Below, piece by piece: positions 8,442-12,878 of a stretch of 26,558 nt of DNA. The notes below the pieces were generated by a model. That model was not told where the DNA came from, did no database searches, and was given only the letters and a program-made list of their open reading frames with translations. The position numbers and the translations under genes are program-made. Source of the stretch: Anaerolineae bacterium (GTDB lineage Bacteria > Chloroflexota > Anaerolineae > UBA4142 > SHND01); NCBI GenBank assembly GCA_038253185.1, contig JBBSHK010000001.1, positions 1 to 26,558 on the forward strand. The letters run 5' to 3'. Position 1 is the first letter of the stretch, and each line of letters opens with the position of its first letter.

Positions 8442-10253
8442 CTACGCTTGCCCACTCTTTCCTAACTTGCTCACTTCTTTTTCTACCACACTCTCGTCCA
8501 ATTTTTTGAAGAGCGCTTTCGGCTCGCCGAGTTTTTGCCCCGGCGCGAGTTGGCTCGGCGACCAACGCGCATTCGCGGTCGGTGGTGAATACACCAATAC
8601 TTCGTGCGAACGCGTCTCTTCTTCAAATGTCTTGATGTCGAACGTCCCCGCGAGATCACCGTCATAGCCAAGTTGCCGATGCAGGTCGGCGGACGAATGC
8701 GGCAGGTACGGATAGAGCAGCGTCTTGAGATTGTCAATGACGCGCAGCGCGACATAGATGCTCGTGGCGGCGCGGGCGCGATCTTGTTTGATCGTCTTCC
8801 ACGGCTCGGTCGCGTTGAGATAAACATTCGCCTCGCGCGCGACCTCGAACGCGAGTTGAATCCCTTCCTTGAAACGCGTGTGCACCAACGCGTCGCCGAT
8901 GGTGGTAAACACGCGTTCGCTTTTTTCGAGCAGCGCGCGATCTTGATCCGATAACTCACCCGGCGTCGGCACTTGCTTGTCAAAATTTTTGTAGGCGAAG
9001 GTCAGCGCGCGGTTCGCGAGATTGCCCCACGTCGCGACCAGCTCGTCGTTATTGCGCCGCACAAACTCGCGCCAACTGAAATCGGTGTCGGCATATTCGG
9101 GCATATTGGTCGAGAGCAGATAGCGCAGCGGGTCGGGATCATAGTCCGCGAGATAGTCGTTGATCCACACCGCCCAATGCGCGGACTTGCTGAACTTGCG
9201 CCCTTCGAGATTCAAGAATTCATTCGCGGGCACATCGTACGGCAATGGCAGGGGCAGGTCTCGTGCCTGCCCATATCCCAAAATAATCGCGGGCCAGATC
9301 ACGGTGTGAAACGGAATATTGTCCTTGCCAATAAAATAATATGGCTTGACGTTCTCCGCGACCGTCCACCATTCGCGCCACTTGTCTCCCAATTCATTGT
9401 TGCGCGCCCATTCGACCGACGCGGAATAATAGCCGATCACTGCTTCGAACCAGACATAGATGCGTTTGCTCGGAAACTTCCCGACCGCTTCGGGGATGGG
9501 AATGCCCCAATCGAGATCGCGCGTGATGGCGCGCCCGTGCAAGCCGGTTGGATTTTCGTCCGTGCCATCGCCGCGCAAATAATTTAAGGTGAACGCGCGC
9601 ACGTTCGATTTCCAATGCGCTTGGGTGCGCGCCCAATCGAGCAGCGGCTGATTGAATTGCGCGAGGTCGAGATAAAAATGTTCGGTGTCGCGCACCTCGA
9701 GCGTGTGCGCCGCGCCATCTTTCGCGAGACGACAGCGCGGGTTGATGAGCTGCAGCGCGTCGAGCACATTGCCGCAGTTTTCGCACTGGTCGCCGCGAGC
9801 GCGTGGGTAGCCGCAGATGGGACATTGACCCTCGATGTAGCGATCGGGCAAAAAGCGCGCGTCGTCTACACAGTAGAGTTGTTTCTCGGTCGCGCGATAA
9901 ATTTCTTCATTCTGATAAAGCTTCAGAAAAAAATCCTGCGAAATGCGATAGTGATTCTCCGTATCGGTGTGCGTGAAGAGATCGAATGAAATGCCGAGAC
10001 GCGCGAACGATTCAAGAAAAATATGATGATAATGCTCAAAGACTTGGCGCGGCGATTTGCCTTCTTCGTCCGCGGTGATGGTCACCGGCGTGCCGTGTGA
10101 ATCGGAACCGGAGACGACGAGCACCTCATTTCCAAGCAGACGATGATAGCGCGCGAAAATATCGGCGGGGAGATATGCGCCCGCGATGTGTCCGAGATGT
10201 AGAGGTCCATTGGCGTAGGGCCAGGCGACGAATACTCCAATTTTGTCGGTCAT
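8442..10253 (-). CDS. metG: Methionine--tRNA ligase without C-terminal tRNA-binding dimerisation domain
   Basis: PYANGPLHLGH (HIGH), GSDSHGTP, CPICG...CENCG zinc knuckle, YVWFEA, GKDNIPFH, KFSKS (KMSKS). Confidence 0.97.
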   Translation of the reverse strand: MTDKIGVFVAWPYANGPLHLGHIAGAYLPADIFARYHRLLGNEVLVVSGSDSHGTPVTITADEEGKSPRQVFEHYHHIFLESFARLGISFDLFTHTDTENHYRISQDFFLKLYQNEEIYRATEKQLYCVDDARFLPDRYIEGQCPICGYPRARGDQCENCGNVLDALQLINPRCRLAKDGAAHTLEVRDTEHFYLDLAQFNQPLLDWARTQAHWKSNVRAFTLNYLRGDGTDENPTGLHGRAITRDLDWGIPIPEAVGKFPSKRIYVWFEAVIGYYSASVEWARNNELGDKWREWWTVAENVKPYYFIGKDNIPFHTVIWPAIILGYGQARDLPLPLPYDVPANEFLNLEGRKFSKSAHWAVWINDYLADYDPDPLRYLLSTNMPEYADTDFSWREFVRRNNDELVATWGNLANRALTFAYKNFDKQVPTPGELSDQDRALLEKSERVFTTIGDALVHTRFKEGIQLAFEVAREANVYLNATEPWKTIKQDRARAATSIYVALRVIDNLKTLLYPYLPHSSADLHRQLGYDGDLAGTFDIKTFEEETRSHEVLVYSPPTANARWSPSQLAPGQKLGEPKALFKKLDESVVEKEVSKLGKSGQA

Positions 10254-10271
10254 AGTAATAACTCCGGTCGA

Positions 10272-10299
10272 AGGTTACAGGTTAAAAGTTGAAAATTGA
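10272..10299. repeat. 7-nt-period tract in the metG leader
   Basis: AGGTTAC AGGTTAA AAGTTGA AAATTGA. Confidence 0.55.
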
Positions 10300-10373
10300 A
10301 CCCCACCTAACCTCCCTCCTCTACGCTTCGCTCCGAGGGTCTTCGACTTAGTAGGGGGAGGAAGGGAGGGGTA
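10299..10373. repeat. REP-like C-rich/G-rich palindrome in the metG leader
   Basis: ACCCCACCTAACCTCCCTCCTCTAC ... GTAGGGGGAGGAAGGGAGGGGT with an internal CTTCGAC module. Confidence 0.6.
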
Positions 10374-10378
10374 GAAAT

Positions 10379-10412
10379 AAAAAAGCCGCAGTCCGAATTT
10401 CGAACTCGCGGC
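10379..10412 (-). terminator. Attenuator terminator in the metG 5' leader
   Basis: Minus strand GCCGC-G-AGT-TCGA-aat-TCGG-ACT-GCGGC then TTTTTTATTT, about 125 nt before the metG start. Confidence 0.8.
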
Positions 10413-10452
10413 GTGGCGCACCGTACGTCAACTCGCTGTTTGAGTTGGCACT

Positions 10453-10500
10453 TTACGGCACGCCGCTATGCATTCCCATTGAGAAAAGATGAATGAACAT
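10453..10500 (-). CDS. Putative metG leader peptide MFIHLFSMGMHSGVP
   Basis: ATG TTC ATT CAT CTT TTC TCA ATG GGA ATG CAT AGC GGC GTG CCG TAA; internal Met codons 8 and 10; 3' end overlaps the antiterminator 5' arm. No clear SD. Confidence 0.6.
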   Translation of the reverse strand: MFIHLFSMGMHSGVP

Positions 10501-10529
10501 TTTCAAATCGATTCGTGCGAACGGATGAG

Positions 10530-10556
10530 AAAGGGCGGAATTGACTCCGCCCTTTT
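10530..10556. terminator. Hairpin between the 84-aa gene and the metG leader
   Basis: Perfect 10-bp stem AAAGGGCGGA / TCCGCCCTTT; T-rich tails on both strands (weaker on minus). Confidence 0.65.
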
Positions 10557-10586
10557 ATTTTACCACAGACGTTCGAGAAATAGCAA
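10557..10586 (-). promoter_or_regulatory. metG leader promoter (extended -10)
   Basis: Minus strand TTGCTA (10586-10581) - 18 nt - TAAAAT (10562-10557) with TGg directly upstream of the -10. Confidence 0.6.
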
Positions 10587-10603
10587 TTGTCACGCCGTGC
10601 GAG

Positions 10604-10858
10604 TTACGTCGCAGGCGCGAGGTGCAGGACCAGGCGCGTGTAAGCGAACCACACGCCATAGCACACGATGCCGACGACCAGCGCTTCGACCAAACTTGGC
10701 ACCAGCGCGATGCTGATCCAATCCAGATGCAGACCGTTGCTCAAGAGGAACAGCGGCGCAAATGCCACCGCCCACGCGATCGGCGGAATGCTCAATAGTC
10801 CAAAGCGGAAAATATTCGCGCGGCGCTCTTCTCGCGACTCTATCTCAGTTTGTCTCAT
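10604..10858 (-). CDS. Small two-TM hypothetical membrane protein (84 aa)
   Basis: Start moved to ATG 10858 because of a strong SD AGGAGGTG 6 nt upstream; two hydrophobic segments. Confidence 0.7.
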   Translation of the reverse strand: MRQTEIESREERRANIFRFGLLSIPPIAWAVAFAPLFLLSNGLHLDWISIALVPSLVEALVVGIVCYGVWFAYTRLVLHLAPAT

Positions 10859-10949
10859 TTCATTCACCTCCTCTTGAGTCAAGTCTGACCGGGATTTTTG
10901 ACTCGTGCCCCCAATTGCGACAGCAGTTTACTCTGGAGTACTAACGCTG

Positions 10950-11753
10950 TCAATCGCGACGCGTTGTCCGAGCCGCACGCGTGCCGTAAATGCCGCGCGC
11001 ATCGTTCCAGCGCACCGCGAGCACATCGCGAAAATTGCGCCACGAGTCTTTCAGCGGATTCACTTTGGTCTCCGTCCCATAGCGCCACTGCACCGGCACC
11101 TCTTTGATGCGATAGCCGGATTTCGTCGCGATGAATAACACCTCGACATCGAACGCAGTGACCATTCCGTTTTTGATACGCTGCGCGGCTTCGCCGTACA
11201 ATTGCACTCGCGAAAAAATATCGTGCGCCACTTCGTCGCGGAATGCTTTGAATCCGCACTGCGTATCCTCAATCCCGCGCACGGTGAGCAAACGCACAAT
11301 AAAATTGAACACGCGCCCCATCAAGTGACGATAAAAGGGTTCTTTGATACGCTGCGCACCGCTGCCCTCGCGCGAGCCGATGACGATGTCATAGCCGCGC
11401 TCGAACCACGGCAATAATTTTTCCACATCCTCGATCGGCGTCGAGAGATCGGCATCTGAAAAAAGCACGATGTGCCCGCGCGCCGCGAGCATCCCCGTGC
11501 GCACGGTGTACCCCTTGCCGCGATGATCGTTGCGAATCAGGCGCACGGTCGGGTGTGTCTCCGCAAACGCGTCCACCACTTCGCCGGTCTGATCGGTCGA
11601 ACCGTCGTCAACGATCAAAATTTCGGTCGGGTAATTCAGTTTGGCGAAATACGCGTGGACGCGCGCGAGAGTTTGCGGCAAGCGCCGCTCTTCATTGTAG
11701 GCGGGGACGACGACCGAGAGAAAGGGGCGATTCGATTCTTGGGTAATGGACAA
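10950..11753 (-). CDS. GT2 polyprenol-phosphate glycosyltransferase (ALG5/DPM1-like)
   Basis: LSVVVPAYNEERRL, DDGSTD, GKGYTVRTG, FSDADLSTP, DTQCGFK, FDVEVL; TTG start with SD GGAGGG. Confidence 0.9.
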   Translation of the reverse strand: MSITQESNRPFLSVVVPAYNEERRLPQTLARVHAYFAKLNYPTEILIVDDGSTDQTGEVVDAFAETHPTVRLIRNDHRGKGYTVRTGMLAARGHIVLFSDADLSTPIEDVEKLLPWFERGYDIVIGSREGSGAQRIKEPFYRHLMGRVFNFIVRLLTVRGIEDTQCGFKAFRDEVAHDIFSRVQLYGEAAQRIKNGMVTAFDVEVLFIATKSGYRIKEVPVQWRYGTETKVNPLKDSWRNFRDVLAVRWNDARGIYGTRAARTTRRD

Positions 11754-11810: not shown

Positions 11811-11884
11811 GGACGGCAGACGGACGACGTAAGACGGCATAAAAGGAAGTTTCATCGGTCGTCCATCGTCGGTCACCGGTCGTT
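11811..11884. repeat. 7-nt-period imperfect palindromic element
   Basis: GGACGGC AGACGGA CGACGTA AGACGGC, with an opposed CGTC/GGTC arm at about 11850-11884. Confidence 0.6.
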
Positions 11885-12878
11885 ACCTCGCCAGCACTCG
11901 TTCGATCTCTTCGTCGCGCACCCGTTTCAATTGCTGCGCCTGTTTTCTTTTTTTCAAAAACGCGGGGATCGCGAGAATGCCCGCGAGCTGCCCGCGCAAG
12001 CGCGCCCGCGCCGCCTCACCGCGCCAGTGTCGTAGCGCGTCGAAGGTGATCCTTAATTGCGCGCGCAAAATTTTCGTCCAATATTTTTTCCAGAGCGCGG
12101 CGGGATAATTTTTCACCAGCACGAGGATAAAATTGCGTCCGACGAAATAACTCGCGCGTGCGCCGCCACCCGTCGCGCTGACCATATGATACACAATCGC
12201 GCGCGGCGCATACACACTTTCAAATCCCGCGAGCCGCGCCCGCCAGTTCAAGTCCACATCTTCGCAATAGCTGCCGAGTGATTCATCGAATAGTCCCACC
12301 GCGTCAAATAATTCGCGCCGGTACGCCGCCGCACCCGCGCACGGACCAAACACCGGCGGCGCGTTGCTGTCGTCGTACTGCCCGCGATCAACTTCCCACA
12401 CGCCGCGATTGCCCGGAATTCCATCGACGCGAAAATAATCGCCCGCGCTGTGCAATTTCTCACGTGCATTAAACAGGCGCAGCTTGCTCGCCGCCATTGC
12501 CGCGGGCTTGTTTGCCTCCAGCGCGTGCACGAGTTCTTCCAGCCAGTTCGGTTCGGCTTCGGTGTCGTTATTCAGCAGCACGATGATCTCGCCGCGCGCC
12601 GCGCGAATGCCTGCGTTCACGCCGCCCGCAAATCCGCGATTGGTGTCGAGTGTGAGCACGCGTACTTCGGGATAATTTCGCGCGAGCAGTTCGCGCGAAT
12701 TGTCGCGCGAGGCATTATCCACGACGATGATTTCAAAATCGGTAAAGGTTTGTTTTTTCAAACTGTCGAGGCAGGTGGGGAGCAGATGCGCGCCATTCCA
12801 GTTGGGGATGATGAGCGATGCAAAAGGATGAAGGATAAGGGATGAAGGATGAATAAGATTTTTTACTTCCGCCTTCAT
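11883..12878 (-). CDS. GT2 glycosyltransferase, WbbL/RfbF (rhamnosyltransferase)-like
   Basis: IIPNWNG, VVDNASRD, NRGFAGGVN, LLNNDT, AAYRRELF, YCEDVDL; translationally coupled to rmlD (ATGA). Confidence 0.85.
   Translation of the reverse strand: MKAEVKNLIHPSSLILHPFASLIIPNWNGAHLLPTCLDSLKKQTFTDFEIIVVDNASRDNSRELLARNYPEVRVLTLDTNRGFAGGVNAGIRAARGEIIVLLNNDTEAEPNWLEELVHALEANKPAAMAASKLRLFNAREKLHSAGDYFRVDGIPGNRGVWEVDRGQYDDSNAPPVFGPCAGAAAYRRELFDAVGLFDESLGSYCEDVDLNWRARLAGFESVYAPRAIVYHMVSATGGGARASYFVGRNFILVLVKNYPAALWKKYWTKILRAQLRITFDALRHWRGEAARARLRGQLAGILAIPAFLKKRKQAQQLKRVRDEEIERVLAR

Follow-up and report, generated by a model that had tools for sequence, protein, structure and literature searches.

A candidate methionine-codon leader attenuator upstream of metG in Anaerolineae

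Introduction

To our knowledge, leader-peptide attenuation is known or in print for Trp, His, Phe, Leu, Thr, Ile/Val and Cys, mostly from Proteobacteria and Actinobacteria, and for methionine not at all. Methionine genes are thought to be controlled by S-adenosylmethionine (SAM) riboswitches, T-boxes or repressors, and where an RNA controls a synthetase gene in Firmicutes it is usually a T-box. The closest described designs are Escherichia coli pheM-pheST and the predicted leaders of Streptomyces trpS and leuS, where an open reading frame (ORF) with cognate codons and an intrinsic terminator precede the synthetase gene and stalling at hungry codons is proposed to raise expression. Here we describe a leader of similar layout, with methionine as the amino acid probably sensed, in front of metG, the gene for methionyl-tRNA synthetase (MetRS), on a 26,558-nucleotide (nt) stretch of DNA from an Anaerolineae bacterium (Chloroflexota; contig JBBSHK010000001.1). 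This whole stretch is called the window throughout; positions are counted from its first letter, and the leader lies on the minus strand.

A comparative study of Actinobacteria described classical attenuators before trpS and leuS, cited pheST and gave no RNA control of methionine genes (PMC1262725). Our full-text search of the literature found no paper describing a Met-codon leader or a metG attenuator, in line with an earlier note on this DNA, made from its letters alone, which knew of no characterised Met-codon attenuator and proposed one here. Comparison of homologous leaders leads us to regard the element as a likely Met-tRNA-sensing, ribosome-mediated transcription attenuator of metG, which would make it a case of classical attenuation with a new amino-acid specificity and in a new phylum.

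Results

Organization of the metG leader

The gene, assigned by a Pfam PF09334 match (E = 2.5e-140) and a MetRS anticodon-binding domain (PF19303), encodes 603 amino acids (8442–10253, minus strand). Between its start at 10253 and the stop codon of a small ORF at 10604 lie 350 nt that hold the whole leader unit: promoter, 5′ hairpin, leader ORF, long hairpin and intrinsic terminator, in that order. The promoter (10557–10586) combines a −35 element TTGCTA (10586–10581), an 18-nt spacer and an extended −10 element TG-n-TAAAAT (10565–10557), a 9/12 match in a promoter scan with the TG in place. It is followed by a hairpin GGGCGGA/TCCGCCC (10533–10552), part of a segment of ~37 nt that is peculiar to the window copy and sits where relatives have a Shine-Dalgarno (SD) sequence.

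The leader ORF (10453–10500) runs from an ATG at 10500 through 15 codons, encoding MFIHLFSMGMHSGVP, to a TAA at 10455–10453. Its codons 8 and 10 (10479–10477 and 10473–10471), read directly from the sequence, are the putative Met sensor codons. GGCGTGCCGTA (10454–10464), which overlaps the final four sense codons and reaches two bases into the stop codon, is the 5′ arm of a stem, P1, and hence region 1 in the numbering of classical attenuators. The P1 3′ arm, or region 2, is TACGGTGCGCC (10415–10425), and the stem encloses an inner hairpin, P2 (AACTC/GAGTT, 10430–10446). Next comes the terminator (10379–10412), a GCCGC-G-AGTTCG / CGGACT-GCGGC stem (10412–10385; −18.2 kcal/mol) with six T residues (10384–10379), which leaves 125 nt to the metG start. 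Promoter, 15-residue ORF with Met codons 8 and 10, pairings and terminator all lie on the minus strand exactly where the earlier note had placed them. It had missed the 5′ hairpin with its ~37 extra nt, a second register of the stem, and a possible mini-hairpin, CGGTG/CGCCG (10423–10419/10413–10409).

The leader is confined to metG and conserved in an order

We searched for the MetRS protein in 40 related genomes and examined the DNA upstream of each match. This yielded an alignment of 27 homologous leaders from 27 genomes, belonging to two families of one order of Anaerolineae, from which a covariance model of the leader core, R1, was built. R1 matches are found in 30 of the 34 genomes of the order, score 72–111 bits and lie directly upstream of metG in every case; the other four are metagenome-assembled genomes (MAGs), 69–85% complete, in which metG itself was not found. 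Each genome has one real copy, apart from a broken second copy in genome G002. In the genome that contains the window, the runner-up reaches 20.7 bits and falls in coding DNA, as do, apparently, the other weak matches. R1 searches of this genome and the order gave no leader at a gene other than metG besides the broken G002 copy, and no such leader was seen at MetRS loci of 55–58% identity or at loci of Actinomycetota and Dormibacterota.

The 27 leaders share one order of elements: TGnTAnAAT, GGAG or GAGG, ATG-TTC, an ORF with ATG-NNN-ATG, (A)GCGGCGCACCGTAA, a GC-rich hairpin, CGGTGCGCCACGCCGC, and a terminator ending in GCGGCG-T5. The promoter motif is complete in 24 and reduced to its TATAAT core in three. 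Since only ~22 nt separate the terminator from the metG ATG in some relatives, the leader promoter is the sole promoter available to metG there. Judged from these sequences, the arrangement exceeds chance. Promoter, SD, in-frame ORF, Met codons, P1 and terminator are conserved and associated with metG exclusively.

Known RNA elements do not account for the leader. A permissive Rfam scan (E up to 10) of positions 9800–11200 returned no relevant family, and neither the T-box (RF00230) nor any SAM riboswitch family matched at this threshold; over the whole window no family reached its gathering score. Seven relatives' loci likewise gave nothing relevant, and no T-box match was found in the relatives' leaders. 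Thus neither of the models that the earlier note had named as possible alternatives, T-box and SAM, fits the leader.

The second copy in G002 (L168, G002:C122:79–181, minus strand; 50 bits) is of the type found in G005–G007 and lies at a contig start. An insertion whose ends are inverted, CCTACTTGGTAG...CCAACCAAGTAGG, interrupts its terminator, and the contig ends before any downstream gene.

Met codons are maintained as codons in a probably translated frame

An SD (GGAG or GAGG) stands 6–9 nt 5′ of ATG-TTC in 24 of the 27 leaders, and in 26 the aligned start and the Met codons share one reading frame. In these 26 the spacer measures 21, 24, 27, 30 or 33 nt, so that all insertions and deletions are multiples of three, and their frames contain no in-frame stop, as against 19 in the +1 frame. 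The homologous ORFs have 15–27 codons and encode peptides that are otherwise poorly conserved. The second ATG is kept in all 27 leaders and the first in 26 (CTG in G001), leaving ATG-NNN-ATG intact in 26 leaders, and the codon between the two takes at least seven forms. In genus g3 a third Met codon is frequent (M-L-M-P-M), or the series reads ATG-ATG-ATG. We conclude from this pattern that, for the ATGs, conservation acts on codons and not on a contiguous RNA motif. Alignment thus bears out what the earlier note had expected of metG leaders, namely conserved Met codons and stem covariation (see below); across the order, the leaders keep the ORF, its SD, the terminator and a constant spacing between the two ATGs and the stem. 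The number of sensor codons, two or three, is below that of the his, phe and thr leaders and equal to that of trp.

Poor conservation of the peptide also bears on whether the nascent chain itself could be the sensor. TnaC senses tryptophan in the ribosome exit tunnel, and a Pro codon before a stop slows termination; by analogy, the leader could encode an arrest peptide with free methionine or SAM as its ligand in the tunnel and S-G-A-P-stop as the arrest site, as the peptides of family f2 end in (P/S)-(S/N)-G-A-P-stop. However, the third positions of these codons are invariant as well in family f2, and these nucleotides are the P1 5′ arm, which places the constraint on the RNA; the remainder of the peptide is not conserved. 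In genus g3, moreover, a 1-nt deletion shifts the frame and the ORF ends 4–9 codons later, yet the RNA motif stays. We have rejected the arrest-site reading of S-G-A-P-stop on account of this frameshift and consider an arrest peptide very improbable indeed.

A sister leader with the same gene and the same codons

MetRS loci of Aggregatilineales/Phototrophicaceae give weak full-length R1 matches (15–19 bits) and carry a different leader ~100–200 nt upstream of metG (L085–L109, L129). Here a −10 element is closely followed by an ATG, so that the ORF is apparently leaderless, and the ORF contains an invariant ATG-CCT-ATG-CGG-ATG (M-P-M-R-M-P). The in-ORF segment GACAGACGG follows 15–18 nt past the last Met codon, and its complement CCGTCTGTC is the 5′ arm of a terminator that GACAGGCGG and a T-run complete. 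This in-ORF copy of the terminator 3′ arm would be an unambiguous antiterminator, left free by a ribosome stalled at the Met codons.

The two leaders share metG, methionine as the putative sensed amino acid, alternating Met codons, an intrinsic terminator and an in-ORF segment resembling the terminator 3′ arm. They differ in that the sister leader belongs to another sequence family, has three Met codons and a clear 9-bp antiterminator, and lacks an equivalent of the P1 register. An apparently independent design with the same gene and the same sensor codons is, in our view, the strongest argument for Met-tRNA sensing.

P1 is the best-supported helix of the leader

RNAalifold and direct counts identify P1 as a 9-bp stem, GGCGYRCCG / CGGTRCGCC, that is paired at every position in all 27 leaders and shows compensatory changes at three positions. 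It begins 9 nt after the first base of the second ATG in every leader and encloses P2, which in relatives is a GC-rich hairpin of variable sequence and length. The gap between P1 and the terminator is 0–1 nt in family f2, the window copy and G001, and 3–4 nt in genus g3. The terminator, a GC stem followed by T5–T7, is likewise kept in 27/27 and carries a compensatory G-C to A-U change in G005–G007. High conservation of all four segments fits the notion that each has two pairing partners.

Such conservation, far beyond the needs of pairing, could also mean that P1-P2 is itself the functional element, either as a signal for pausing or antitermination by RNA polymerase or as a binding site for a protein or a tRNA, with the ribosome only gating its folding and no competition between base pairs. 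Alternatively, P1-P2 folded beside a stalled ribosome could block completion of the terminator or the response of the polymerase to it, sterically or in the manner of phage put RNA, and unwinding by a translating ribosome would restore termination. The support for P1 in 27/27 leaders with covariation favors both ideas, as does its 9-nt offset: given the dimensions of the ribosome, this is where the helix would abut a ribosome that holds the second ATG in its A site. The 0–1 nt that separate P1 from the terminator in many leaders point the same way. In contrast to known polymerase-binding RNAs, P2 is free to vary in sequence and length; the gap widens to 3–4 nt in genus g3; two partners per segment explain the conservation equally well; and we know of no precedent for an adjoining helix that sterically inhibits a terminator. 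We consider both a signal residing in P1-P2 and a steric or put-like block unlikely, although the latter would be a new kind of coupling between a leader peptide and termination.

Another idea, that the P1 arms mimic a tRNA acceptor stem (GGCGCAC...GUGCGCC-A resembling the stem plus the discriminator base), was dropped: the MAG offers no tRNA-Met gene for comparison (see below), a degenerate pattern search gave as many matches as its control, and the 'discriminator' A is not kept in genus g3.

A proposed kinetic switch with two candidate antiterminators

In the mechanism that we favor, transcription from the extended −10 promoter would have to pass the strong terminator (10412–10379) to reach metG, and the leader ORF, whose Met-x-Met lies immediately upstream of P1, would be translated while the leader is being synthesized. 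When Met-tRNA(Met) is plentiful, the ribosome would cross the P1 5′ arm and reach the stop codon, leaving CGCCGC free, and transcription would terminate. When Met-tRNA(Met) is scarce, through low methionine or low MetRS activity, the ribosome would linger at the Met codons and CGCCGC would be held in an alternative pairing until the polymerase had cleared the U-tract, resulting in more MetRS. That pairing could involve (a) AGCGGCG at the end of the ORF with CGCCGC(U), the former being free with the ribosome at the first Met codon only, or (b) CGGUG with CGCCG, a classical 2:3 hairpin that would form when a ribosome at the second Met codon covers the GGCG of P1. That Met-tRNA is what the leader responds to, and that either pairing serves as the antiterminator, is our inference.

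A scan for conserved complementarity yields five pairings: P1, the terminator, the two candidates, which we call A:B′ and B:B′, and GCGCC/GGCGU (22/27). A:B′ joins the A segment, (C)GGCG, to the terminator 5′ arm CGCCG and is complete in 24/27 leaders; B:B′, formed by CGGUG and CGCCG, is complete in 24/27 as well. In the window the A:B′ arms are GCGGCGTG (10459–10466), a near-copy of the terminator 3′ arm whose core pairs in 84% of the alignment cells, and CACGCCGC (10408–10415), region 3, which is the terminator 5′ arm and the partner common to both candidates. The B:B′ partner of this arm is the CGGTG within region 2 (10423–10419), which pairs with CGCCG (10413–10409).

The earlier note had named GCGGCGTG/CACGCCGC, with CCGTA/TACGG and AACTC/GAGTT paired inside it, as the antiterminator. 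This stem is a shifted register of the P1 hairpin that takes the terminator 5′ arm and bulges TGCGC; the conserved register with covariation is GGCGTGCCGTA (10464–10454) with TACGGTGCGCC (10425–10415). For the window copy, folding favors this assignment: before the terminator 3′ arm is transcribed, A:B′ is the minimum-energy fold (−39.8 vs −33.2 kcal/mol). Once the transcript is complete, the terminator fold is the more stable by 4.9 kcal/mol but separated from A:B′ by a barrier estimated at 11.6 kcal/mol, which makes A:B′ a plausible kinetic trap. The assignment fits the family less well, for reasons given below; in relatives the P1 register is the more stable and leaves the terminator free.

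B:B′ behaves differently. Masking the GGCG of P1 makes pairing of CGCCGC in B:B′ favorable in 25/27 leaders, and the helix outlasts the G005–G007 change, which turns its U-G pair into U-A. According to these folding models the antiterminator could be A:B′ or B:B′, and both may act.

Several findings weigh against this scheme. At equilibrium the terminator forms in practically all 27 leaders, whether a ribosome is masked at the first Met codon, the second Met codon or the stop. These folds do not tell the competing models apart, and a switch, if there is one, has to work kinetically, like those of classical attenuators. When transcripts are truncated in the models, the probability that the terminator 5′ arm is paired follows no consistent pattern over the family. 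G001 retains just one of the two Met codons, and the window copy has no SD beside its ATG and, unlike all its relatives, carries the 5′ hairpin with ~37 extra nt. A:B′ is 1–14 kcal/mol less stable than P1 in 26/27 leaders, loses strength where the Ser codon reads AAC or CGC instead, and is broken in G005–G007 by a G-to-A change (terminator ACCGC/GCGGU). The ribosome footprint is taken to extend ~12 nt beyond the A-site codon; on this assumption a ribosome with Met10 in its A site would cover GCGGCG. As A:B′ needs a free AGCGGCG, it is possible only with the first Met codon in the A site, and the earlier note's reservation about a stall at Met10 was well placed. B:B′, for its part, has just 5 bp (−3 to −6.5 kcal/mol), and the changes by which G001 and G002 preserve P1 weaken it. 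A ribosome at the stop codon would allow it to form as well, so the right regulatory logic requires that the ribosome be released and P1 re-form before the polymerase reaches the U-tract.

The lack of a stable antiterminator tied to a Met-codon stall in the equilibrium folds, and a 2:3 hairpin that would form whenever a ribosome covers the P1 5′ arm, even from the stop codon, are what would be expected if a ribosome on the leader simply modulated a leaky terminator. The leader would then sense general translation, that is, ribosome availability or growth rate, and the Met codons would be kept for another reason. This leaves unexplained why the ATGs alone are conserved as codons while their neighbors vary, why genus g3 has gained a third Met codon, why an unrelated-looking metG leader in Aggregatilineales has three, and why the element is restricted to metG. 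We give this explanation little weight and retain Met-tRNA sensing as the probable function.

The window copy departs from its relatives

The −10 element and the ATG are 65 nt apart in the window copy, as against ~28 nt to the SD-ATG in relatives. With no SD, a 5′ hairpin and 37 extra nt, translation is less certain here than in the relatives. The earlier note had flagged the missing SD, and there is indeed none beside the window ATG. The region just 5′ of this ATG is AU-rich and predicted to be unpaired, and initiation there is possible. The 5′ hairpin looks like a generic terminator hairpin inserted between promoter and ORF, displacing the SD. On the plus strand, GGGCGGA/TCCGCCC (10530–10556) with the TTTTATTTT that follows it reads as a good terminator; relatives have near-identical hairpins at other places in their genomes, and the plus strand gives a weak L20_leader match.

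A CA-to-TG change specific to the window turns two P1 pairs into G-U and lengthens A:B′ to 8 bp, and the A:B′ model consequently fits the window better than it fits the family. The same change bears on whether the copy is still a working one. The family could be real and the window copy decayed or rewired, loss of the SD having stopped translation and left a constitutive partial terminator; the departures just described would fit this, and at 76 bits the copy has one of the lowest R1 scores. Yet the copy retains an intact ORF with both Met codons, P1 and the terminator, the AU-rich stretch ahead of its ATG is predicted to be open, and strengthening of A:B′ to 8 bp suggests continued selection on the switch. 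Decay of this copy is, on balance, quite improbable.

Comparison with described control systems

The leader maps onto the trp, his, leu, thr and phe operon attenuators region by region: P1 corresponds to 1:2, CGGUG:CGCCG to 2:3 and the terminator to 3:4, with the stop codon at the end of region 1. Unlike them, it inserts P2 between regions 1 and 2, so that a terminating ribosome cannot cover region 2; it has a 2:3 helix of 5 bp and a register-shifted pairing of region 1 with region 3; and it precedes a synthetase gene rather than a biosynthetic operon and matches no Rfam leader model. From pheM-pheST, trpS and leuS it differs in its amino acid, its two or three alternating codons, its occurrence in Chloroflexota and the lack of any sequence or Rfam relationship; its Met codons lie upstream of region 1, not inside it, and most members have no evident strong antiterminator.

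With the T-box (RF00230) the leader would share terminator-based control of a synthetase gene by tRNA charging, but it has no Stem I, specifier loop or T-box sequence, and sensing would proceed via a translated ORF. The window's own genome has four T-boxes above the Rfam cut-off (C618:1837–2153, C303:3133–3414, C47:8571–8840 and C115:7426–7657), none before metG. Their three readable targets are a class I synthetase of the Ile/Leu/Val type, a proline-racemase-like gene and an aspartokinase; contig C618 ends before the gene. The organism would thus combine T-boxes, for other genes, with a leader-peptide device. Two weaker T-box matches lie on C107 and C63.

If the proposal is right, the ribosome itself reads the charging of tRNA-Met, and classical attenuation extends to Chloroflexota. 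It also makes one ask how a sensor can work with just two or three codons. The non-obvious antiterminator would make the leader a useful test case for kinetic models of attenuation, and synthetic biology could use the element as a compact, orthogonal sensor of methionine or MetRS.

A crude scan of the whole genome for further leader-peptide attenuators, which combined a terminator, an SD-preceded ORF and codon runs, gave nothing convincing, and its SD requirement missed even the metG leader. ARAGORN lists 36 tRNA genes in this 88% complete MAG and no tRNA-Met, initiator or elongator, probably owing to an assembly gap.

Neighboring sequences

The window is represented only in DNA sequencing runs, which come from a soil metagenome, and in no RNA run. 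On the minus strand, the metG promoter is directly preceded by the small ORF, which encodes 92 amino acids (10604–10882), which has no Pfam match and is itself preceded by two genes for GT2 glycosyltransferases (10950–11753 and 11883–12878).

Between the terminator and the metG SD, a CT-rich/GA-rich inverted repeat of ~70 nt occupies 10300–10372 (minus strand). Part of it recurs in the genome at C10:10461–10511 (90% identity) and C129:4696–4739, and analogous hairpins of GAAGGATG-like repeats are found at the same place in many relatives. The repeat may belong to a REP-like type that inserts behind terminators, or it may stabilize the read-through mRNA.

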